64,000 bases of DNA from contig JBBROH010000001.1 in NCBI GenBank assembly GCA_038229595.1, forward strand, positions 50,633 to 114,632, written 5' to 3'. This DNA is from Chloroflexia bacterium. GTDB taxonomy: Bacteria > Chloroflexota > Chloroflexia > QHBQ01. Under the pieces are notes generated by a model. It saw nothing but the letters and a program-made list of their open reading frames with translations, was not told the DNA's origin and ran no database searches. Positions 19,754 to 61,914 of the stretch are shown here, in pieces. The translations under genes were made by a program, and so were the position numbers. Within the stretch, counting starts at the first letter, position 1. The number at the start of each line of letters is the position of its first letter.

Positions 19754-19782
19754 TTGCAAAAGTGGGCATAGTTTGTTATAAT
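19754..19782 (+). promoter_or_regulatory. promoter of tRNA-Ala
   Basis: TTGCAA (19754-19759), 17 nt spacer, TATAAT (19777-19782). The tRNA starts 12 nt downstream. Confidence 0.7.
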
Positions 19783-19793
19783 GGCTCGGCAAC

Positions 19794-19869
19794 GGGGACT
19801 TAGCTCAGTTGGGAGAGCGCAACACTGGCAGTGTTGAGGTCAGGGGTTCGAGCCCCCTAGTCTCCACCA
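19794..19869 (+). tRNA. tRNA-Ala (anticodon GGC)
   Basis: GGGGACTTAGCTCAGTTGGGAGAGCGCAACACTGGCAGTGTTGAGGTCAGGGGTTCGAGCCCCCTAGTCTCCACCA. Has the G3:U70 identity pair. Anticodon loop is CTGGCAG. CCA is encoded. Confidence 0.95.
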
Positions 19870-19875
19870 TCTTTT

Positions 19876-19901
19876 ACGCATCCGCAGGGGTGCGTTTTCT
19901 T
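19876..19901 (+). terminator. intrinsic terminator after tRNA-Ala
   Basis: ACGCA..TGCGT stem followed by TTTTCTT. Confidence 0.6.
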
Positions 19902-19918
19902 CGATAGCAGGCATCGAA

Positions 19919-20195
19919 CAGGAGTAGTAGGCCGTTCCCCACCCAGAGAGTCGGCGGCTGGTGCAAGCTGACAGGGGGGCCGTGAGGTAGGCCGAACTCG
20001 CCTGGGAGCCGCAGCGGTGAGAGCAATCGTAGCCGCAGCCGAAGTTGCGCCCGTTAACGCGCCCTCAAGCGGACGTTTCGCCCGGCAACCGGCCAGGGCT
20101 GATGCGTCAACCAGGGTGGTACCGACGGAGAGCGCATAGCCCTTCGCCCCTGACTCCAGATGTGGAGTTGTGGGTGGAGGGCTGTTTGTTTTGGG
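19919..20195 (+). promoter_or_regulatory. T-box riboswitch leader, leucine specific (CUC specifier), with terminator/antiterminator
   Basis: Stem I: CAGG 19919-22 pairs with CCTG 20001-04, and GGCC 19930-33 with GGCC 19990-93. S-turn AGTAGTA sits opposite GAA-CTC-G (specifier CTC at 19997-19999). AG box AGAGA 19945-49. Distal hairpin with loop GGCTGGTGCAA. F-box CCGTTA 20051-56. T-box GGGTGGTACCG 20114-24 (TGGT can pair with ACCA). A 12-bp terminator stem, 20138-49 with 20172-83, is followed by GTTTGTTTTG. Confidence 0.75.
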
Positions 20196-20271
20196 CTGGC
20201 AAGGGTAGTGTAACCAGTGATTGTCTGTTTGCGTAGATGCAGTAGACCGCTTTGCAGGAGGATTGAGCGTG

Positions 20272-20412
20272 ATGAGCGACGAGGCAAAGGACGAGGCGAC
20301 GGCCATGCGTCCCCAGACGATGGCCCTGGTCTGCCCAGCTTGCCGCTACACGGAGTTGCGGACTTTGAACCCGGAGCGGCTGTATCTCTTAAGTAGCGAG
20401 GAAGCAAGATGA
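20272..20412 (+). CDS. zinc-ribbon array member 0: truncated, single-knuckle paralog
   Basis: AGGAGG lies 7-10 nt upstream. The 46-aa product ends ...LVCPACRYTELRTLNPERL. This aligns with the C-terminal knuckle of the paralogs (VCxxCGYxxLYAxxPxxL) with G replaced by R. No first CxxC. Stop overlaps the next start (ATGA). Confidence 0.45.
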   Translation: MSDEAKDEATAMRPQTMALVCPACRYTELRTLNPERLYLLSSEEAR

Positions 20413-20996
20413 GCAACCAGGATGAACAGGACGAGTACCGCCCTATCGAGGCACCGATGCCGCCGCTGCCACCCGAAGGTAGCAGGCAACAACCAACAGG
20501 CTACGCTGGCCCAGCCTTGCCGCCGTTGCCAGCCCAACCCGCTCGTCCACTCTCGGCTGAGGAAGCAGCGATTGTGGGTCGCTACCAGGCACAAGGAAAG
20601 AAGCTGCTGACGATAGAGGAACTTAGCCGCCAGGCCGCCATTGCTTCCGAGGAAGCCCGCCGGGAGTTGCGGGCAGCCGAGTCGTTCGTGCTGTCAGCCA
20701 CGCCGCCAGCAAGTACACTGCCCCCACCGCTCGCCCCAGTCGTCCCGCTACCCACTCCTGGACCAGCCCGCCGCAGCCAGCGCGACTGTTCGCAGTGTAG
20801 CGGCCCAACCAACCGCGCCAACCTCAACTATGGCAGCCGTACCGTTGGCTACGAAATGGAGTTGACCCCAGTAGACCAAAGCCTCTTTGACTCGCGGCTG
20901 GCGCGGGTGCAGGTTTACGTCTGCGAAGATTGCGGCTACGTTGACCTCTACGCTACCAGCCCAAAGAGCCTGCGGCCCAAGCCGAAGCGGAGGTAA
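20409..20996 (+). CDS. zinc-ribbon array member 1 (long P/A-rich N-terminal extension)
   Basis: N-terminal PMPPLPPE motif, about 135 aa of low-complexity sequence, then CSQC...YVCEDCGYVDLYATSPKSL. Confidence 0.7.
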   Translation: MSNQDEQDEYRPIEAPMPPLPPEGSRQQPTGYAGPALPPLPAQPARPLSAEEAAIVGRYQAQGKKLLTIEELSRQAAIASEEARRELRAAESFVLSATPPASTLPPPLAPVVPLPTPGPARRSQRDCSQCSGPTNRANLNYGSRTVGYEMELTPVDQSLFDSRLARVQVYVCEDCGYVDLYATSPKSLRPKPKRR

Positions 20997-21000
20997 AGTG

Positions 21001-21333
21001 ATGAGCGACAACCCGAAGTACGATCCCGACAACCCGCCGATGCCCGACCTGCCGCCAGAGGACGAGCTTGGTCAGCAGCAGGGTGGCAACTTCTACGAGC
21101 AGATGAACCGAAGGCTGGCAGAACACCGCCCCCGCACTCAACCGGGCGTGCGGCAAGGTGGCTGCTTCGAGTGTGGTGGCCGCATGGTAGAGGGCAAGAT
21201 GAGCAGCTACACTACAGTGCGGGTAGCGGATGGCAACCCCTTCTTCAGTCGTACTTCGGCGGTCAAGGCGTTGGTCTGCACCCGCTGCGGCTTCATCAAG
21301 CTGTACGCGACTGATCCCAGCGTGGTAGAGTGA
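21001..21333 (+). CDS. zinc-ribbon array member 2
   Basis: GGAGG lies 7 nt upstream. MSDNPKYDPDNPPMPDLPPE..., then CFECGG...LVCTRCGFIKLYATDP. Confidence 0.75.
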   Translation: MSDNPKYDPDNPPMPDLPPEDELGQQQGGNFYEQMNRRLAEHRPRTQPGVRQGGCFECGGRMVEGKMSSYTTVRVADGNPFFSRTSAVKALVCTRCGFIKLYATDPSVVE

Positions 21334-21355
21334 GTATCACAAGGAGGCAACCAGG

Positions 21356-21760
21356 ATGAGCAACCGCAACTTCGACCCGAACAACCCCTACTCTGCGCCA
21401 ATGCCGCCGCTGCCAGGCGAAGCGGGCTACAACCAGGCGGGGCCGGACTACAACAACGATGACCTGATCCGTCAGCTAACCCGCAGCAGCACTTCCCCCT
21501 ATGACGTGCAGTCGCAGCCAGCGCAACCCGCCTATGCCGCGCCGCAGCCAGTCCACACGGCAAGTGGCTGTCCAGAGTGCGGTGGCAATATGCTTATCGC
21601 TAACACCCACAGCAACAGTGAGTATCAATTCTACTTCACGCCGCCCGACAAAGGCTTCTTCGACTTCCGCCGCTCCGAGGTGCGGGTGCTGGTCTGCGAG
21701 AACTGTGGCTTTACCAAGTTCTATGCCCTCAGCCCCAGCGAGTTGCGCCCTAAGGAGTAG
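21356..21760 (+). CDS. zinc-ribbon array member 3
   Basis: AAGGAGG upstream. MSNRNFDPNNPYSAPMPPLPGE..., then CPECGG...LVCENCGFTKFYALSP. Confidence 0.75.
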   Translation: MSNRNFDPNNPYSAPMPPLPGEAGYNQAGPDYNNDDLIRQLTRSSTSPYDVQSQPAQPAYAAPQPVHTASGCPECGGNMLIANTHSNSEYQFYFTPPDKGFFDFRRSEVRVLVCENCGFTKFYALSPSELRPKE

Positions 21761-21763
21761 CGG

Positions 21764-22066
21764 ATGAATGATAACCCGAAGTTCGACCCCGACGACGCGG
21801 CCATGCCGCCGCTGCCACTGGAGCAGCCGAGCTTGCTGTCACGTTCGCGCCGCTGCCCTGATTGTAGTGGGGAGATGGTACCTACTCGGCTAGAGGCGGG
21901 AATCGCGGCTGACGGGGTTTACATCGTTCCTAGTGCAGTCGAGCCTTAGGCCAGGCTGGATCGCTACCAGAGTTCCAGCCACTCAACTACCTGCGTAAAC
22001 TGCGGCTACACCAAAGTTTACGCCCGCCGACCTGACCTGATCAAACAGTTCTTTGAAGAAAGGTAA
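21764..22066 (+). pseudogene. zinc-ribbon array member 4, interrupted by an in-frame TAG at 21947-21949
   Basis: MNDNPKFDPDDAAMPPLPLE...CPDCSG...SAVEP[TAG]ARLDRYQSSSHSTTCVNCGYTKVYARRPDLIKQFFEER. Both halves are in the same frame, and the second knuckle lies after the stop. Confidence 0.6.
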
Positions 22067-22071
22067 GTGTG

Positions 22072-22299
22072 ATGAACGAGCAACTGAAGCAAGAACCGAA
22101 GGCGATGGCCTGCCCCAAGTGCGCGGGCAATATGATCGAGCGCGGCTTTATTGACCCTAACAAGGCGGTCTTCAGTCCTGCGCCCGACAAGCTGCAATGG
22201 ACACAGGCACGCACTTCGCCCGCGAAAGCGATGGTTTGCGACCAGTGTGGCTACGCTGAAGTCTACGCCACCCAGCCGGAGAAGCTGCGCGAAAGCTGA
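22072..22299 (+). CDS. zinc-ribbon array member 5 (short form)
   Basis: MNEQLKQEPKAMACPKCAGNMIERGF...MVCDQCGYAEVYATQPEKL. Resembles the minimal DUF2082/Zn-ribbon_13-type proteins as I recall them. Confidence 0.75.
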   Translation: MNEQLKQEPKAMACPKCAGNMIERGFIDPNKAVFSPAPDKLQWTQARTSPAKAMVCDQCGYAEVYATQPEKLRES

Positions 22300-22344
22300 G
22301 CAGGATTGCCGCTGCCAGACCGGGCAGCAGGAAGGATCACCTTG

Positions 22345-23145
22345 ATGAATGCTGACCAGCCGAAACAAGAGGCAAAAGCCACCGCCTGCCCTAAGTGCGG
22401 GGGCGGTATGCTTGAGTGCGGGATCGAGACCAGCAATGCAGTGCAACTGGCTGGCAGCCTGGGGGTGACGCTGGTGCCGCTGGGCAGAGGCATCTTCAAC
22501 AGGCAGCGGTCTGGCATACTTGCGCTGATGTGCGAGCGATGTGGCTACGTTGAGTTGTATGGCGACCCCAGGCAGATCAAGCCGGGTTTAGCGATAGTGA
22601 GGAGCAGAGATGAGAGACAAATACATACCGCAAGATATCGAACCACAGTGGCAGGCGCGTTGGGCCGAACAGCGTATCTACAACGTACCCCAGCCAGCGG
22701 CGGGCGGCCAAGAGGAGCGGAAGTTCTATGTGGCCTCGATGCTGCCCTACCCCAGCGGCGACTTGCACATGGGCCATATGCGGAACTACACTATCGGCGA
22801 TGTAGTGGTCCGCTACCACAGGATGAAGGGGGAGCGGGTGCTGTCGCCGATGGGCTGGGACGCGTTCGGGCTGCCCGCCGAGAACGCTGCGATCAAGGAT
22901 GGCATCCACCCTGCCACCCGCACGCCGAACAACGTGGCCGCGATGAAGCAGCAGTTCGCCAAGATGGGCGCGATGTTCGACTGGGAGCGCGAGGTCAACA
23001 CCTCCAGCCCCGAATACTACCGTTGGACGCAGTGGCTCTTTCTCAAGCTGTATGCGATGGGGCTGGCCTATCGCGGCAAAGGGCTAGTCAACTGGTGTCC
23101 GAAAGACGCGACTGTGCTGGCAAACGAGCAGGTAGTGGAGGGTAA
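22345..23145 (+). CDS. zinc-ribbon array member 6 (short form) with no nearby stop; ORF runs out of frame into leuS
   Basis: [22 protein letters not shown]...[21 protein letters not shown]. Paralog homology ends near 22590. The frame then stays open to 23145 across the leuS start (22610). The functional end is uncertain. Confidence 0.5.
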
Positions 23146-25081
23146 GTGCGAACGCTGCGGCACCGTAGTGGTGCGCCGCAACCTGGAGCAGTGGTTCTTC
23201 AAAACGACAGCCTACGCCCAACGGATGCTCGACGACCTTGACGGTCTAGACGGCTGGCCGGAGCGTGTCCGCACCATGCAGCGCAACTGGATTGGTCGCA
23301 GCGAGGGTGCCGAGGTAGACTTTGCCATCGCTGGCAGTGAGGGCAAGTTCACCGTCTTCACCACCCGGCCCGACACGTTGTGGGGGGCAACCTTCATGGT
23401 GCTGGCCCCCGAACACGCCCTGGTAGAGACGATCACCGCCCCAGAGCGGCAGGCCGAGGTTGCCGCCTACAAGGAGCAGGCCAGCAAGCAGAGCGAGATT
23501 GAGCGGCTGGCGACTGACAAGGAGAAGACGGGGGTCTTTACTGGTGCCTACGCGATCAACCCGGTCAATGGCGCACAGGTGCCAATCTGGATCGCCGACT
23601 ACGTGCTGACCACCTACGGCACGGGCGCGATCATGGCCGTGCCTGCCCACGATGAGCGTGACTTCGAGTTTGCCCGCAAGTTCGGCCTGCCGATCAAGCT
23701 GGTCTACAACACCGAGCCGCCGCAAGATGCTACTACCATGCCCTCTGCTATCCTGCACACTGGCGTGGCGGTGGCGGCTGGCCCCTTCACCGGGCTGCCC
23801 GACGCAGCAGAGACAGTCAGCAAGGTGATCGCCTGGCTGGAAGCGCAGGGGTTCGGCAGGGGTAAGGTTAACTTCCGCCTGCGCGACTGGCTGATCAGCC
23901 GCCAACGCTACTGGGGTGCGCCAATCCCCATCGTCTACTGCGACCACTGTGGGATGCAGCCGCTGCCGCTCAACCAACTGCCGGTCGTGCTACCCCTGGA
24001 TGTGGCGTTCAAGCCGGGCGGCGAGTCGCCCCTCGCCCGCGTCGAGTCGTTCGTCAACACCACCTGCCCGGCCTGCGACGGCCCCGCCCGCCGCGAGACC
24101 GATACGATGGACACCTTCGTGGATAGCTCCTGGTACTTCATGCGCTACTGCGACCCGCAGAACATTGAACTGCCCTTTGACAAGGCGATGGTAGATTACT
24201 GGATGCCGCTGGATCAGTACATTGGTGGGGTCGAACACGCGATCCTGCACCTGATGTATGCCCGCTTCTTCACCAAAGCCCTCTACGACGCAGGTATGAT
24301 CAGCATTAGCGAGCCGTTCACTAAGCTCTTTACCCAGGGCATGGTCTACCTCAACGGGGCGAAGATGAGCAAGAGCAAGGGTAATGTGGTGCCGGTAGAT
24401 GACTTTGTGGCGCGCTTGGGGGCAGACGCGGGGCGCATCTACGTGCTGTTCATGGCCCCACCGACCGACGATAGTGAGTGGAGCGACGCGGGCGCAATCG
24501 GGGCTTCACGCTTCCTGGGTCGTGTCTGGCACCTGCTCGACGAGGGGATCGACCTGCACGCCGCCCGCCCAGCCGCTGCCGACCTGGACAAGGCCGCCCG
24601 CGAGATCGTCGGCCATGCCAACCGCCTGGTAGAACGAGTAGGCAGCGATATCGAACGCTTCCACCACAACACCATCATCAGCGCGTACATGGATTTTGTC
24701 AACAAACTGAGCGATTACCGCGAGCAGCAGGGGCAGACCGCCGCCTTCAACGAGGCCGCTCGCCTGTTCCTGCTGGTTCTCGCCCCCGCCGCCCCACATA
24801 TCGCTGAGGAAATCTGGCAGCGGTTGGGTGGCAAGGGCAGCATCCACCTGCAAGCCTGGCCCAGCGTCGACTCCGCCTTCCTGCAAGCCGAGGAGATGAC
24901 CATTGTGGTGCAGGTCAATGGCAAGCTACGCGACCGCCTGACCCTGCCTGCGGGCATGGACGAGGCAGCAGTAAAGGAAGCAGCCCTGGCCGCCGACAAA
25001 GTGGCCGCCACCCTCAACGGCAGGCAGCCCACCAGCGTCCTCTACGTCCCTGGTAGGCTGGTCAATGTGGTGGTCAAGTAG
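22610..25081 (+). CDS. leuS: leucine--tRNA ligase
   Basis: [15 protein letters not shown]-terminus. HMGH (HIGH-type) motif. CP1 zinc knuckles. KMSKS motif ([10 protein letters not shown]). 823 aa. GAGGAG RBS. Confidence 0.95.
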
Positions 25082-25095
25082 AGGAGGTGGGGAGG

Positions 25096-25890
25096 ATGGA
25101 GCTAGAGGGGCTGATCGTGCAGGTGCAGGAGAGTGGCAAGTACCGGGCGGTCAGCCCTGAGCTTGTGCGCCAGCTTGCCGCGCAGGAGGCGGCGAAAGGG
25201 CGCAGCGTGAAGGAGACGGTGAAGGCGATCCGCAACCGCCTGCATCAGGTGGGCGGTGCCTACCTCGAAGCGGGTACTGACTACGACCGCTGGCTGGCGA
25301 GCTTGCAGGCAGCAGAGGGGCGGGCCAGCTTGCTGGCAGCCTGCCGGGAGGTGCTGCGCCACCACGCCTCGACCCGCGAACGCCTGCCGATCCTCGACCA
25401 GTTCTACGCCACCGTGCTGGCTGGCCTACCGCCGCTACGCTCGGTGCTAGACGTGGCTTGCGGCCTCAACCCGCTGACGATCCCCTGGTTGCCGCTGGCT
25501 GCCGACGCACTCTACTACGCCTGCGACATCTACGCCGACATGGTGGCCTTCCTCAACGCTAGCTTCCCGCTGCTCGGCGTGCAGGGAGCCGCCAGCCAGT
25601 GCGACCTGACCCAGACGATCCCCACTACCGAAGCGGACATTGCCTTCATCCTCAAGACGATCCCCTGCCTTGAGCAGGTGGACAAGGCGGCGGGCCGCAG
25701 GCTGCTGGATGGCCTGCGCGCCCGCTGGCTGCTCGTCTCCTTCCCCACCCGCAGCCTGGGCGGGAGGAGCAAGGGCATGGGCGCGAGCTACGAGGCACAC
25801 TTCAACGCCCTGGTTGCTGGGCGCGGCTGGCAGGTCGCTCGCTTTGAGGTCCCCGGCGAACTCGCCTTCCTGGTAGACAAGCAGCCCTGA
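25096..25890 (+). CDS. 16S rRNA (guanine1405-N7) methyltransferase family protein (Rmt/ArmA/FmrO-like)
   Basis: Aligns by eye with the RmtB sequence as I recall it: GKYRAVSPELVR, HASTRERLP, LDVACGLNPL, ILKTIPCLE, VSFPTRSLGGRSKGM. Confidence 0.85.
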   Translation: MELEGLIVQVQESGKYRAVSPELVRQLAAQEAAKGRSVKETVKAIRNRLHQVGGAYLEAGTDYDRWLASLQAAEGRASLLAACREVLRHHASTRERLPILDQFYATVLAGLPPLRSVLDVACGLNPLTIPWLPLAADALYYACDIYADMVAFLNASFPLLGVQGAASQCDLTQTIPTTEADIAFILKTIPCLEQVDKAAGRRLLDGLRARWLLVSFPTRSLGGRSKGMGASYEAHFNALVAGRGWQVARFEVPGELAFLVDKQP

Positions 25891-25891
25891 G

Positions 25892-26596
25892 CTAGCTGCC
25901 GCAAGGTCGGTGGATAGTCAGGCCGGGGTACTCCTGTAGCAACTGCTCCTCGCTCTGGAACCAGCGCAGGTTGTCGGCCTTGATGCTGTGCCAGCCGGGG
26001 TCGTCGGCACAGTAGTAGTATTTGCGTGACTTGCTGCTAACCACGTAGCGACCAGGGGCCGCGGTCGGCACGGTGGTTTCGGTCGCCAGCGGTTTAGGCG
26101 TGCGGGTGGCGGTTGCGCTGCTGGTCGGCCTGGGTGTGCGGGTGGCGGTCGCGGTGCTGGTTGGCCTGGGTGTACGAGTGGCAGTCTCGGTGCTGGTCGG
26201 CCTGGGCGTGCGCGTAGGCTTGGCGGTGGCAGAGGGCTTTGGCGTAGAAGTGAGTTTAGCAGCGGGCGGCGGCCTGGTGGTACGGGTGGCCTTGGCCTGG
26301 GCTGGCTCGTTGCGGGCGGTCTGCTGCTCGCCGCTCTCCGTCGCTTCGTTGGTGGCGGCAGGCTGCTCTGCGCTGGTTGCCGTAGCAACGGCTGCTTCGT
26401 CCGTTGCTGGCCCAGGGTTGGGCGCAGTGGGGTTGTCTGGGGCAAAGGTGGGCAGCAGGAGGATCGGCTTGAGGTCGGGGCTGAGGGTGGGCGCAGCCGT
26501 CGCAGCGACCCCTGTTGGGCTGGGCATAACAGGCGCGGCCTGGTCGCAGGCAGTGAGCAACAAGAGGAGCATCAGGCAACCGAGGGTGCAGCGCAT
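25892..26596 (-). CDS. lipoprotein with T/P/R-rich repeats and a C-terminal Cys-containing domain
   Basis: Lipobox LLLLTAC. ATRTPRPTS repeats. C-terminus KYYYCADDPGW...NLRWFQSEEQ...PC. Confidence 0.7.
   Translation of the reverse strand: MRCTLGCLMLLLLLTACDQAAPVMPSPTGVAATAAPTLSPDLKPILLLPTFAPDNPTAPNPGPATDEAAVATATSAEQPAATNEATESGEQQTARNEPAQAKATRTTRPPPAAKLTSTPKPSATAKPTRTPRPTSTETATRTPRPTSTATATRTPRPTSSATATRTPKPLATETTVPTAAPGRYVVSSKSRKYYYCADDPGWHSIKADNLRWFQSEEQLLQEYPGLTIHRPCGS
26097..26204. repeat. 36-nt tandem coding repeat x3 (plus degenerate copies)
   Basis: Units at 26097-26132, 26133-26168 and 26169-26204 encode the TATRTPRPTS(T/S)A repeats. Confidence 0.85.
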
Positions 26597-26821: not shown

Positions 26822-29599
26822 TCAGGGCTGGCTTTCGATGGCGCGGCGCACAACCTTGCTCAGTTCACCGCGCTTGATGTTGTCGTTCGGGCGGAAGCAG
26901 AGGCCGCTAGCCCCCACACAGCTTGCCCCGTTGATGATGCTGTGGCTAGCCAGCGTCTCGATGGCGGCGTAGCCGAAGCTGCTGGCTGGCACGTCGCTGA
27001 AGGTCGCTACGGTCGGGGTGAACAGGGCGTAAGCGCGCACCCTTTGGCTAATCACCGCCACCTGCGCCCGCGTCACGTTCTGGTTGGGGCGGAAGCTGCC
27101 GTCGTTGAAGCCAGTGATCGCCCCCGCGTGTGCTGCTGCTTCCACGTACTGGTAGAACACGCTGCTGCTGGCTACGTCGTTGAAGGTGGGCGTGGTCGGG
27201 GTAAAGGCGGTGATGCCGAAGCCGAGGGCGGCTATCTTGGCGAATTGACCGCGGGTGCTGTTGCTGTTGGGGGCGAACAGGCCGCCATTGCCGCTGACTA
27301 CCCCGCGACAGGCGAGGAACTGGATGTCGCCGTAGAAGATGCTGGTGGTCGGCACGTCGCTGAAGCTGATCGTGCAGGCAGCAGCGGTGGCGGTTGGCGT
27401 GCTAGCAGCGGCGGTATTGGTCGCAGTGCTGGCGGCTGGCGCAGTAGCAGTTGGCGTAGTGGTGCTAGCAGCGGCGGTGTTGGTTGCGGTGGCAGCGGGC
27501 GCAGTGGTGTTGGTTGGGGCAACTGGCACGCTGGTGGCAGTGCTGGCCGCTGGACTGGCGGTGCTGGTTGGCACAGGGGTGGGTAGGCTGTCGTCGTAGA
27601 AGTGCCGCAAGCCAGTGTCGCCCGCCGCCCAACCTTCGTTGGCGTTGAGGAAGCTGAGGCTAGTGAGAGGGCCAAGGGCTGAATAGACCACTTGCCAGCT
27701 AATGCCATCGTAGTGCGCGATTGTGGCTGGCTCGAAGCTAAAGCTCTCGGTCGTTGCCCAGCCGTTGTTAGCTGAGAGCATCTTGAGGCTATCAACCCCA
27801 TCGAACGGCACGCTGACACTCGTCCAGGTGCTACCATCCCAGTGTAGCATCCGCCGGTGTAGGCCGCCGATCCATACGTCGTTGTCGCTAGCCGCACTAA
27901 TGGCAAAAGGAACAAAGCCGTTCTGGTTGAGGTTGACGCGCTGCCAGCTTGTGCCGTCGAAGTGGTAAAGCAACGGCACACGGGCTGACGAGTTGTACAA
28001 TCCCACCGCCCAGCCGCTAGTCGGGCTGGTGAAGCTGAGCGAACCCAATCTTCCCTCCAGCCCTGGCTCTATTAGTTGGATTGTCCAGCTACCGGCCTGG
28101 TAGCGAGCGTAAATGGGCTGCGGGTGGAATACATCGGTGTAGTATTCGCCGACCGCCCAGCCACTGTCCGCCCCGGTCATCTGCATGGCTTGGAGATGGT
28201 ATTGGCTGTCGAAGCCCTGGAGGGTGTCCGTCCAGGTAATACCGTCGTAGTGGCTGAAGCGGCCCACTGGCAGCTCGTAAGAGGTGTACTTCCAGCCGTC
28301 ATTGTTGGCGAAGAAGTCCAGCGTATCCGCACCTACGCCTGCGTCTAGCCAGCCAACCCCGTTGTAGTGGTACATCCGTGAGTAGCCGTTGAGCCAACCG
28401 TCGTTCGGGGCTAGCATCTTGACCTCTGAGCCTTTCGCACCCCAGGTAACCAGGTTGATACTGCTGCCAGTCCAGTGGTAGAGTAGCCCATCCGTCCCCG
28501 CCGCCCAGATGTCGTTGGCCGCCTCCCCGGAGATACTCTTGAGGCTGGCAACCACGTTAAAGGAGTTGCTGTTGTGGCGGAAACCAAAGCTGGTGCCGCT
28601 AGTTGTGGCCGCGTAATAGTCGTTGCTGGCAAGGGCAAAGATGCTGGTAACATCGCTGTCACCGCTGCCTGCCACTGGCTGCCAGCTTGTGCCGTCATAG
28701 TGTAGCACACTGTCGCCGCCGCTGTCGCTGCTGTTAGCGAGGCCGATCCAGCCCTCGTTCGCGTTCAGCATGGAGATGCTCCGCACCTGCACGTTGCTGT
28801 TGCCAAGCCGCACCGCTGTCCAGTTGTAGTCTTGGAAGTGGAAGGCATAGGGGAAGGAATCAAAGATGGTACTGGTATTGTTACTGGTATTGGTATTGGT
28901 ATTGGTGTTGGTAATTACCTCGGCGACCACCCAGAAGTCGAGCTGGCTGGTCGCGCTCATCTGCCTGACTTCCACAAAACCAGTCATGATGGCGGGGGTG
29001 GGTAGCACCTGCCAGTTTGGGCCGAACTTGGTAAGGAACATGGGGCGGGATGCGTCCCGCTCATCAATAGTACTGCCGAGTATCCAGCCCTCCCCCAGCC
29101 TGGTCATGTCCACGTCGAGCAGCTCGGTGGGTTGCGGTTGATTGGGAGCGGCGACCTGCTGCCAGGGACCACCATCAGAATGGATGATAGTGCTTTGACC
29201 AATGTGATCGCCGACGGCCCAAATGTCGTTGGTAGCATGGCTATCCACCGCCCTGAGGTTGTCATTAACTGGACTGGCGACCTCTTGCCAGCCGCCACCG
29301 CTGTAGTGACGGATGATGCCTCCGTCACCGACGGCCCAGCCATCGGTTGCCGAGCGCATCTTGACTGCCGTATAGTTGGGGTAGGGCTGGTGCCAGGTAG
29401 GGCCAGTCAAGGGTTGACTGCTACCGTTGGCAAGGGCGGCAACTGGCTGGTGGCTGGCAGTGGGGAGTGGGCTGGCAGCCTCGGCGGCGGCCAAAGTAGC
29501 ACTGAGGATGAGGACAAGAGCGAGGGTAGTCGCCAACAGGCGGCGCAGGGTGAAGGGCATTGATAGCATAAGGGTACGTCCTTTCAGGGTCGCTCTCAT
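26822..29599 (-). CDS. SLH-domain surface protein with a multi-blade beta-propeller-like repeat region
   Basis: Signal peptide. More than 10 repeats of the [YLF]H[YW]DG.sW..V type. T/A/P linker. Three C-terminal SLH domains (FSDVP..., FNDVA...TRAQVAV, FSDVP...). The start (29599 or 29569) is uncertain. Confidence 0.8.
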   Translation of the reverse strand: MRATLKGRTLMLSMPFTLRRLLATTLALVLILSATLAAAEAASPLPTASHQPVAALANGSSQPLTGPTWHQPYPNYTAVKMRSATDGWAVGDGGIIRHYSGGGWQEVASPVNDNLRAVDSHATNDIWAVGDHIGQSTIIHSDGGPWQQVAAPNQPQPTELLDVDMTRLGEGWILGSTIDERDASRPMFLTKFGPNWQVLPTPAIMTGFVEVRQMSATSQLDFWVVAEVITNTNTNTNTSNNTSTIFDSFPYAFHFQDYNWTAVRLGNSNVQVRSISMLNANEGWIGLANSSDSGGDSVLHYDGTSWQPVAGSGDSDVTSIFALASNDYYAATTSGTSFGFRHNSNSFNVVASLKSISGEAANDIWAAGTDGLLYHWTGSSINLVTWGAKGSEVKMLAPNDGWLNGYSRMYHYNGVGWLDAGVGADTLDFFANNDGWKYTSYELPVGRFSHYDGITWTDTLQGFDSQYHLQAMQMTGADSGWAVGEYYTDVFHPQPIYARYQAGSWTIQLIEPGLEGRLGSLSFTSPTSGWAVGLYNSSARVPLLYHFDGTSWQRVNLNQNGFVPFAISAASDNDVWIGGLHRRMLHWDGSTWTSVSVPFDGVDSLKMLSANNGWATTESFSFEPATIAHYDGISWQVVYSALGPLTSLSFLNANEGWAAGDTGLRHFYDDSLPTPVPTSTASPAASTATSVPVAPTNTTAPAATATNTAAASTTTPTATAPAASTATNTAAASTPTATAAACTISFSDVPTTSIFYGDIQFLACRGVVSGNGGLFAPNSNSTRGQFAKIAALGFGITAFTPTTPTFNDVASSSVFYQYVEAAAHAGAITGFNDGSFRPNQNVTRAQVAVISQRVRAYALFTPTVATFSDVPASSFGYAAIETLASHSIINGASCVGASGLCFRPNDNIKRGELSKVVRRAIESQP

Positions 29600-29670
29600 G
29601 GTTAGTGGGTGGGTAGCGATCCAACCATAGTTGTGGCTACGCCCTAATCTTAGCACCTAGGGGGGTCAGT

Positions 29671-60891: not shown

Positions 60892-61914
60892 TCAGCGTTC
60901 GATGTTACCAAAGGTGTCGCGGGTGGTACCGGCTGCGTCCTTGCTGCTAACCTGGTTGGGGTCGGCAGCGGCGCGGGCGGGCGCATTACTGTTGTCAATG
61001 TAGCCACCTGCCTGGTTCACCGCGTCGCCTACCGTGCTGGCTGCGTCGGGTTGGTCGGTGCGGAGGCTCTCGCTGGCGGTATAGCTGCTGGTTGCGGCGT
61101 ACTGCGAACCAGTGGTGGTCTTGGCGTAGTCTGCGCCACCTTCGGAGCCAGCCAGCCCAGCATTGCCCATCGCGGCATTGCTGGCGGCGGCATAGATCGC
61201 TTCCTGATCGCGCAGGGCGGGGTCGTGTGCATCGAAGTAGTTGGCGGCGGGGTTGTTGCCTGCCTCTATCTCGCTAGCCGGGTAGACCCCACCAGAGAGC
61301 GCATCGCTGGCGACCATCGTCGGGCTGACAGCAGTCATCCTGCCACTGGCGGTGCTACCAATCCCTGCATTGCCATCGGTCAATGCACGGCTGCTGCCCA
61401 CGCGGTTCTGCACATCCTCAGCCCCAGCATCAAGCAAGATGCGGCGGGTAGCAGCCTCGTCCTGACCCGCAGGGTCAACGGTGAGTAGGATACCACCCTC
61501 GCCTACTGCTGTCTGGTAGTATTGTGCCTCCTCGGATGGCACACCCGCATTGGTCAGGCTGCCCAGCAGCCCCCCTGCGACGGCCCCGGTTGCCGCGCCA
61601 ATGCCAGCCCCAGCAGCAGTCCAGGCCAGTGCGCTACCCGCAAGGGCGATTGGGCCGAGAATCGGCAGGGTGAGGATGGTGCCGGTGGCGATCAGAGCGG
61701 CCAGTGCGCCACCAACGACGGTGCCTTCGACGGCACCCGCCCCAGCGACAGCACCAGCGTCGGTCACATCGTTGTCAGCGGCCATTGCCTTGCTGGTGTT
61801 GCGGTTTTGGGCAACTACGCCAATCTTGCTCGCATCATAGCCAGCCGCCTTCAGCTCGCTGATTGCTTGCTCGGCGGCACTCTCAGTGCGGAACAAACCT
61901 ACTACAGTAGCCAT
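60892..61914 (-). CDS. YflT-like general stress protein with membrane-embedded G/A-rich core and disordered tail
   Basis: N-terminus MATVVGLFRTESAAEQAISELKAAGY. GVPSEEAQYYQTAVGEGGILLTV motif. GAGGAGG RBS at start 61914. Confidence 0.7.
   Translation of the reverse strand: MATVVGLFRTESAAEQAISELKAAGYDASKIGVVAQNRNTSKAMAADNDVTDAGAVAGAGAVEGTVVGGALAALIATGTILTLPILGPIALAGSALAWTAAGAGIGAATGAVAGGLLGSLTNAGVPSEEAQYYQTAVGEGGILLTVDPAGQDEAATRRILLDAGAEDVQNRVGSSRALTDGNAGIGSTASGRMTAVSPTMVASDALSGGVYPASEIEAGNNPAANYFDAHDPALRDQEAIYAAASNAAMGNAGLAGSEGGADYAKTTTGSQYAATSSYTASESLRTDQPDAASTVGDAVNQAGGYIDNSNAPARAAADPNQVSSKDAAGTTRDTFGNIER

Follow-up and report, generated by a model that had tools for sequence, protein, structure and literature searches.

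A leucine T-box leader followed by an array of small zinc-ribbon genes, leuS and a 16S rRNA methyltransferase gene: a probable leucine-responsive operon in Chloroflexota

In a 64,000-nucleotide stretch of the genome of a Chloroflexia bacterium (assembly GCA_038229595.1, contig JBBROH010000001.1, positions 50,633 to 114,632 of the forward strand; hereafter the window, whose numbering is used throughout), a T-box leader stands at the head of a run of closely packed genes: a relic (m0) and six further paralogues (m1–m6) of a small zinc-ribbon family, the leucyl-tRNA synthetase (LeuRS) gene leuS, and an FmrO/Sgm-type methyltransferase gene (Table 1). An earlier note, made by a model from the letters alone, had described this order as T-box, array members 0–6, leuS and an Rmt-like methyltransferase gene, and had proposed that the whole is a single operon controlled by a T-box(Leu). 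Coordinates and profile matches confirm the order, and the junction distances given in that note are all exact: m0 and m1 overlap by ATGA, the following gaps measure 4 nt (m1–m2), 22 nt (m2–m3), 3 nt (m3–m4), 5 nt (m4–m5) and 45 nt (m5–m6), m6 overlaps the start of leuS, and 14 nt separate leuS from the methyltransferase ATG. The description of members 0–6 as an array holds in that all belong to one paralogous family, but m0 is a relic, and this genome carries damaged forms of m4 and m6.

Table 1. Features of the leader, the zinc-ribbon array and the genes downstream (window coordinates)
Feature	Position	Strand	Remarks
Promoter-like site, TG-extended TTGCAA-17-TATAAT	19754..19782	+	in front of tRNA-Ala
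tRNA-Ala(GGC) gene	19794..19869	+	36 nt upstream of T-box
8-bp hairpin with U-rich tail, TTTCTTCG	19876..19895	+	3′ of tRNA-Ala; also conserved in sister species
T-box leader, Stem I to antiterminator	19905..20154	+	Rfam RF00230, full-length match
Intrinsic terminator of T-box	20136..20192	+	long stem ~20136-20182, then UGUUUGUUUU
m0, decayed half-ribbon relic of family member	20272..20412	+	only second knuckle (single CxxC) left
m1, 195 aa	20409..20996	+	PMPPLPPE tail, conserved two-helix segment, proline-rich linker, then zinc ribbon
m2, 110-aa zinc-ribbon protein	21001..21333	+	PMPDLPPE tail
m3, 134-aa zinc-ribbon protein	21356..21760	+	PMPPLP tail
m4, 100 codons	21764..22066	+	in-frame TAG at 21947-21949
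m5, 75-aa minimal zinc ribbon	22072..22299	+	ancestral type
m6, zinc ribbon, 81 codons	22345..22590	+	ancestral type; stop TGA mutated to TTA
leuS, bacterial-type leucyl-tRNA synthetase, 823 aa	22610..25081	+
FmrO/Sgm-type 16S rRNA (G1405-N7) methyltransferase gene, 264 aa	25096..25890	+	GGAGG Shine-Dalgarno site

The leader matches RF00230 with 70.1 bits (E 5e-15 in a local search, 3.8e-13 across the 64-kb window), and its Stem I carries the AGAGA and GGUGCAA motifs. The specifier loop, GAA-CUC-G at 19994-20000, fits the GAA-codon-purine form, and since CUC is a leucine codon, the T-box(Leu) label of the earlier note is correct. The T-box core GGGUGGUACC lies at 20114-20123, within a segment (AACCAGGGUGGUACCGACGG, approximately 20108-20127) that contains a UGGU bulge and aligns to the antiterminator of the RF00230 model. 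The UGGU bulge would pair with an A73 discriminator, which tRNA-Leu has. The terminator hairpin that follows (−40.8 kcal/mol, z score −6.6, with a U-run) overlaps the 3′ half of the antiterminator, such that the two structures compete. A hairpin and U-run terminator is found in six lineages (z −3.5 to −8.9), the T-box of the sister species scores 80.5–80.9 bits, and the specifier context GAACUC(G/A)CC is identical in eight loci (the window, L085, L118, L119, L121, L123, L025 and L083). T-box loci in relatives were called with Rfam and with nhmmer (four-lineage alignment), simple regular-expression scans being unreliable. A second candidate T-box near 60921 of the window was rejected, as it is a motif match only and has no Rfam support.

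Downstream of the leader, the interior of the gene run is free of recognizable transcription signals. A promoter scan, limited to sigma-70 consensus sites, found no promoter-like site on the + strand between 20195 and 25890, and between 20196 and 25900 this strand holds no strong hairpin followed by U residues and no run of five or more U; the sole terminator-like match in this interval, at 23020 within leuS, is a weak one of 6 bp. These scans agree with the earlier claim that no terminator hairpin or consensus promoter follows 20195. In the same scan, the sole recognizable sigma-70-type promoter upstream of the operon is the one in front of tRNA-Ala. Every gene has a GGAGG-like Shine-Dalgarno site 5–10 nt before its ATG, and just 2 nt lie between the 3′ end of the operon and the stop of a convergent gene. 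The attenuator, the signal-free interior, the Shine-Dalgarno sites and the tight or overlapping junctions support the single-operon reading, and we consider it highly probable, from this architecture, that the region would function as one leucine-responsive transcription-attenuation operon.

The array proteins share a core, C-x2-C-x-G-x-M, 34–42 residues, V-C-x2-C-G-[YF]-x-[EK]-x-[YF]-A-x2-P, in which the four cysteines of two CxxC knuckles (C14, C17, C56 and C59 in m5 numbering) are invariant. Their isoelectric points range from 5.0 to 8.4, so they are not basic proteins, and the G+C content at third codon positions (GC3) of the array genes, 0.66–0.78, is typical for coding sequence of this genome. 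Between the window and the sister species, in which LeuRS is 96% identical, the ratio of nonsynonymous to synonymous substitution rates (dN/dS) is 0.17–0.34 for the array genes, 0.08 for leuS and 0.16 for the methyltransferase gene; on this measure the array genes are under purifying selection. An AlphaFold2 model of m5 built on the family alignment is a beta-rich zinc ribbon with a predicted local distance difference test score (pLDDT) of 76.5, and the model of m1 (pLDDT 60) was too poor for structure search. Judged from dN/dS, GC3, the invariant cysteines and the model together, the small open reading frames (ORFs) are real, selected genes for predicted four-cysteine zinc ribbons, roughly neutral in charge, of a divergent branch of PF09855.

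Among the Pfam matches to zinc ribbons, all of them weak, the consistent one is PF09855 (Zn_ribbon_13/DUF2082): m6 lies above the gathering score of 23 bits with 24.7, m5 (21.4), m3 (18.2), m1 (14.1) and m4 (13.8) lie below it, and m2 has no match to the profile. An exhaustive HMMER search over 1.84 billion cluster representatives returned 735 relatives at E ≤ 1e-3, of which 29 reach E ≤ 1e-10. PF09855 matches 18 of 29 wider family members at E ≤ 0.01, with most members scoring under the cut-off. The relatives are mostly 60–110 aa long, and two or three domains per chain occur in 14 of the best 148 (e.g., P0011 and P0021). Their N-terminal tails are of the types QPK[DE][DE] (m5 and m6), PMPPLP (m1–m4) and PT[RQ]RL; further QPKDD-type representatives include P0015, P0019, P0020, P0023, P0024, P0026, P0031 and P0040. 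No metagenome locus matched a DNA pattern based on the N-terminal motif; a two-knuckle pattern did find loci. At L098 235-3211, and in L099, a tandem array with PTQRLD-type motifs lies beside a convergent prephenate-dehydratase-like (pheA-like) gene, showing that tandem amplification is a general habit of this zinc-ribbon family.

The array varies in copy number and integrity. The sister species, whose samples include GCA_043754535.1, JGI 3300009774 and ENA ERZ27245765, has an extra 102-aa m4-like gene between m1 and m2, and the m0 region differs in frame and lesions between the window, the sister species and a third lineage. The m4 nonsense codon is a change from TAC to TAG, and the sister species reads TAC (Tyr) at this position. 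With its stop lost, the m6 ORF reads on to 23145, 535 nt into leuS and out of the leuS frame, and this extension (GC3 0.43, GC content at first positions 0.79) does not have a coding signature. As the m6 of the sister species ends in TGA 16 nt before the leuS ATG, the apparent m6/leuS overlap results from this stop loss. In most contigs of the sister species, m6 carries a 1-nt deletion (60 aa), and the intact 81-aa form is present in one. The m4 nonsense and m6 stop-loss changes could be real decay or assembly errors; the damage to these genes implies that individual copies are dispensable.

How old is the association between zinc-ribbon genes and leuS? LeuRS identity to the window falls from 96% in the sister species to 67% (P0168) and 65% (P0169), and then to approximately 59% in a large group, Chloroflexia or Chloroflexota where named. 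Across these relatives, four arrangements of the leader-to-leuS slot were found: the T-box directly before leuS (type A; L123 and L025); T-box, an alpha/beta-hydrolase gene (PF20408, Abhydrolase_11) and leuS (type B; L066, L121 and L122); T-box, one m5/m6-type zinc-ribbon gene and leuS (type C; L118, L119 and, in part, L120); and tRNA-Ala, T-box, array, leuS and FmrO (type D; the window and the sister species, which has the same operon). All T-boxes of this series share the GAACUC(G/A)CC specifier context. The earlier note had suggested asking whether the T-box directly adjoins leuS in relatives; it does so in the two type A loci, whereas L118 and L119 keep one zinc-ribbon gene between. In L118, a perfect TTGACA-17-TATAAT promoter precedes the T-box (82.9 bits), one family gene, a 14-nt gap and leuS, and in L119, tRNA-Ala(GGC) is followed by a T-box (nhmmer E 4e-89) and a single family gene, which has a 32-nt overlap with leuS. 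In L120, a family gene is directly upstream of leuS, with a spacer of 171 nt; since this contig begins within the family gene, a T-box cannot be seen. The L120 spacer (157-327) holds a long inverted repeat, GCGGCTAGCGGATTCGTAAAAGCG ... CGCTTTCACGAATCCGCTAGCCG. A third array-bearing lineage (L091-L093) is represented by contigs too short to reach leuS.

LeuRS of the L118, L119 and L120 lineages is 63–67% identical to that of the window, and the single-copy proteins best match the leuS-proximal m5 and m6 (43–48% identity). The leuS-linked copies share the N-terminal motif QPK[DE][DE]. As a single zinc-ribbon gene occupies the slot at this degree of LeuRS divergence, the link appears to be ancestral, and the most economical history from these comparisons is that one m5/m6-type gene between T-box and leuS was the ancestral state of a Chloroflexota clade. 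In the common ancestor of these lineages, one such gene would have reached fixation in the slot ahead of leuS, downstream of the Leu T-box, tandem duplication would then have produced the array in the window's genus, with new copies gaining proline-rich PMPPLPPE tails, and the methyltransferase gene would have been added at the 3′ end in that genus. Since a 14-nt gap or a 32-nt overlap leaves no room for a leuS promoter, leuS transcription in L118 and L119 would pass through the zinc-ribbon gene, making co-transcription in these lineages close to unavoidable.

The leader anatomy, layout, translation signals, paralogy, selection and synteny are read from the sequence; a single transcript, a leucine response and any partner of the encoded proteins are inferred. 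The leader is a class-I T-box. Its CUC specifier would recognize the tRNA-Leu(GAG) anticodon, its UGGU bulge would pair with the NCCA end when this tRNA is uncharged, and the antiterminator could then form. RNA polymerase would then pass the terminator and produce a polycistronic message comprising m0, m1–m6, leuS and the methyltransferase gene, with each cistron translated from its own Shine-Dalgarno site. The level of the zinc-ribbon proteins would thus rise with that of LeuRS as tRNA-Leu charging drops. Such predicted co-induction of the array and LeuRS by uncharged tRNA-Leu is well supported by the architecture.

Few bacterial regulons are understood as well as T-box operons, which almost always carry genes for a synthetase, a biosynthetic enzyme or a transporter. 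Compared with known T-box-regulated leuS genes (Firmicutes and Chloroflexota; class I, transcriptional), the operon in the window has the same Stem I GAA-CUC-purine specifier, the same core with UGGU bulge and the same mutually exclusive antiterminator and terminator with U-run, with leuS as a regulated gene. It differs in having 2.4 kb of extra cistrons before leuS, where the ancestral form has a single one, a 16S rRNA methyltransferase gene at its 3′ end, a tRNA-Ala gene abutting the leader and a sub-cut-off Rfam score. In one T-box survey, 62% of T-boxes precede tRNA ligase genes, 18% biosynthesis genes, 12% transport genes and 8% genes of unknown or unrelated function (PMC2494555). In addition, the small zinc-binding protein anti-TRAP (rtpA/yczA) of B. 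subtilis is T-box-induced by uncharged tRNA-Trp (PMC11255114), and its operon was entered in that survey as BSU02530 (PMC2494555). Given these 8% and anti-TRAP, unknown cargo as such is not unprecedented, and the earlier note somewhat overstated the novelty of an uncharacterized T-box cargo. Three features nevertheless appear to be new: an uncharacterized zinc-ribbon cistron conserved in the interval from a Leu T-box to leuS, the amplification of this gene to an array of seven or eight genes, and the joining of an Sgm-type rRNA methyltransferase gene to a T-box-leuS operon. Our literature search found no report of a zinc-ribbon cistron in the slot, of array amplification or of an Sgm-type gene in a leuS operon.

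Anti-TRAP is the nearest precedent in regulatory logic, as in both cases a small zinc protein in a T-box operon would report the uncharged cognate tRNA. The two are not homologous: against PF15777, the window family reaches 13.6 bits at best (cut-off 32), on one knuckle only. Anti-TRAP has two closely spaced DnaJ-like CxxCxGxG knuckles, whereas those of the window proteins are 34–42 residues apart, on either side of a beta-hairpin; moreover, anti-TRAP is not co-cistronic with a synthetase. With PF09855 (DUF2082/COG3478, "predicted nucleic-acid-binding Zn-ribbon protein"), the window family shares the four-cysteine ribbon and the knuckle spacing, and differs from it in lineage-specific N-terminal motifs (QPKDD, PMPPLPPE and PTQRLD), tandem arrays and fusions of two or three domains.

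Several observations weigh against a leucine-responsive operon with a conserved zinc-ribbon cargo. The T-box score of 70.1 bits is below the RF00230 gathering threshold of 93 bits, as are those of the relatives (80–83 bits), so a default Rfam scan misses this T-box and a permissive threshold is needed; despite these sub-threshold scores, the E-values for the window and its relatives (1e-13 to 1e-16) are far beyond chance for this model. The transcription start is uncertain, there being no recognizable promoter from the tRNA-Ala hairpin to the T-box. A weak or non-canonical internal promoter could be present in front of leuS. Two array members, m4 and m6, are damaged in the window, and m6 is frameshifted in most sister-species contigs. 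The leucine content of the array proteins, examined for depletion as a starvation signature, is unremarkable, with mixed values of 4–10% that point neither way. In other Chloroflexota, the same slot is empty (L123 and L025) or holds the alpha/beta-hydrolase gene (L066 and L121/122). Elsewhere, family members are solitary (L094-L097; P0009 and P0035), 16 metagenome loci each have one distant member on a contig that lacks both T-box and leuS, and the L098/L099 array (P0157) has 8–9 PTQRLD-type members without T-box or leuS. Sequence and fold searches also yield no functional lead: a PDB sequence search with the array proteins found no relative among solved structures, Foldseek with the m5 model found no significant neighbor (the best E was 0.7, and the matches were generic ribbons, among them eL42, ZPR1, Rpr2 and RNA polymerase subunits), and we found no functional literature on PF09855. 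A defense-system or phage origin was likewise set aside, with no PADLOC match and two marginal PHROG matches only (E ~4e-3).

Could the zinc-ribbon genes be hitch-hikers, that is, members of a fast-duplicating, lineage-specific family unconnected to leucine that landed in a permissive, well-transcribed slot, making T-box control incidental? The solitary members and the 8–9-gene array beside the pheA-like gene, both without T-box or leuS, would fit this idea, as would the slots that are empty or occupied by the hydrolase gene, the variable copy number (including the extra 102-aa member of the sister species), the lesions in m0, m4 and m6, and the lack of a family member at any of 80 distant leuS loci. 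These loci, from species-representative genomes with LeuRS relatives ≤57% identical, among the matches listed, have no family member or FmrO gene within 6 kb of leuS. However, a single copy is kept in the exact position in at least three further lineages in which LeuRS is only 63–67% identical, all copies are under purifying selection and the leuS-linked copies share their N-terminal motif. We therefore regard incidental residence as unlikely, although a serious contender. Since solitary members and leuS-free arrays exist, the family is not intrinsically tied to leuS; on the sequence comparisons, the link concerns the QPKDD-type branch in one Chloroflexota clade and not the whole family.

It is also conceivable that there are two transcription units, in which leuS and the methyltransferase gene have their own promoter in or after the array and the T-box controls the zinc-ribbon genes only or adds to a constitutive level of leuS. 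The 2.4 kb between the T-box terminator and an essential gene, the 45-nt gap before m6, the L120 spacer with its inverted repeat and the restriction of the promoter scan to sigma-70 consensus sites would all allow for this arrangement. We consider it improbable, because the + strand from 20195 to 25890 has no promoter-like site, the zinc-ribbon gene of L118 and L119 leaves no space for a promoter, and the T-box stands directly before leuS in L123 and L025, identifying it as the leuS regulator in this group. Alternatively, translation of an ORF just before leuS might act in cis, tuning leuS initiation through coupling or leucine-codon-dependent ribosome traffic, with the peptide itself secondary. 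In the anti-TRAP operon, a leader peptide with Trp codons is said to regulate anti-TRAP synthesis. Stop-to-start distances of 14–16 nt (L118 and the sister species), the 32-nt overlap in L119 and the reading of m6 through the leuS start in the window are in keeping with such a role, but the lineages share the four cysteines, the CGY-x-E-x-YA knuckle and the N-terminal motif as conserved protein sequence, dN/dS is well under 1, leucine codons are few and unclustered, and the L120 spacer is 171 nt long. A purely cis-acting ORF thus seems very improbable.

If the array belongs to a single leucine-responsive operon, what might its products do? The role we favor, with low confidence, is that of small zinc-dependent binding adaptors that work at or alongside LeuRS, tRNA-Leu or the translation machinery, with the short conserved N-terminal motif as contact site. 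More speculative still is the idea that the m5/m6-type protein is a dedicated trans-acting partner of the tRNA-Leu charging circuit, made only when tRNA-Leu is uncharged, much as anti-TRAP serves for tryptophan. Its N-terminal motif would then bind LeuRS, tRNA-Leu, the ribosome or a factor that regulates leucine metabolism. In that case, the array would diversify the output through its differing N-terminal tails, and the system would provide the first function for a PF09855 branch and a second case of protein-level signaling downstream of a T-box.

Retention of a zinc-ribbon gene between a Leu T-box and leuS down to 63–67% LeuRS identity, and its amplification in one genus, would open an uncharacterized domain family to study through its regulation, by leucine starvation or uncharged tRNA-Leu, and point to a candidate functional neighborhood for it (LeuRS and translation). 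The relatives also form a natural experimental series, with no cargo, one copy or an array. The leader-to-leuS slot of Chloroflexota has repeatedly gained extra genes: the alpha/beta-hydrolase gene (~220 aa; L066 1103-1780, L121 6249-6908 and L122 4188-4847), found in the group with LeuRS of ~59% identity, is a second, unrelated conserved cargo of the T-box-leuS operon.

The tRNA-Ala(GGC) gene is repeatedly linked to the leuS Leu T-box in Chloroflexota (window 19754-19905, L119 3298-3480, L025 5465-5856, L066 564-1134 and L052 5803-5878). In the window, the sister species and L119, the gene stands immediately 5′ of the T-box, and in L052 it adjoins leuS; in L025 and L066 it sits within the leader itself, as part of a 158-nt insertion that separates the Stem III region from the antiterminator. 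Leaders preceded by tRNA-Ala have no separate consensus promoter visible, whereas the tRNA-less L118 and L123 have perfect promoters directly before the T-box. This pattern suggests that tRNA-Ala is co-transcribed with the T-box leader. The hairpin that follows tRNA-Ala in the window might act as a leaky terminator or as a signal for processing.

The window's LeuRS scores 1033.7 bits against TIGR00396 (cut-off 548), with PF00133, PF13603 and PF08264 all present, which completes the set of catalytic, editing and anticodon-binding domains. The methyltransferase matches Pfam FmrO over its full length (228 bits, cut-off 27) and scores 225.2 bits against NCBIfam Rmt_gen, under the equivalog cut-off of 250; its closest solved relative is Sgm, the sisomicin-gentamicin resistance methylase (E 1.6e-45). 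Compared with the Sgm/Rmt/FmrO aminoglycoside-resistance m7G1405 methyltransferases, the gene in the window is chromosomal, encodes a predicted enzyme and lies in the leuS operon of an environmental Chloroflexota-like genome. A leuS-coupled FmrO/Sgm-type gene was found only in the window's genus, and is absent beside leuS in L119, L120, L121, L123 and the 80 distant loci. Candidate zinc-ribbon-LeuRS fusions were rejected, as the long LeuRS matches reflect assembly duplication or editing-domain insertions. The 1055-aa "LeuRS" of P0170 (NCBI contig, 9535 bp) contains an exact internal duplication of ~230 residues and is most likely a misassembly rather than a fusion, and the ~930-aa LeuRS forms have an insertion in the editing domain.

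Finally, we note some features of neighboring and distant sequence. The convergent gene that faces the operon (25892-26596, − strand) encodes a Pro/Thr-rich protein with tandem TRTPRPTSTxTA repeats, and beyond it lies a gene for a 944-aa protein with a TNTNTN run (26822-29656, − strand), whose sister-species orthologue has an SLH domain (Pfam PF00395). Among contigs with distant family members, L103 carries group II intron domains (2079-2958) and L105 carries a flavin mononucleotide (FMN) riboswitch (427-578).

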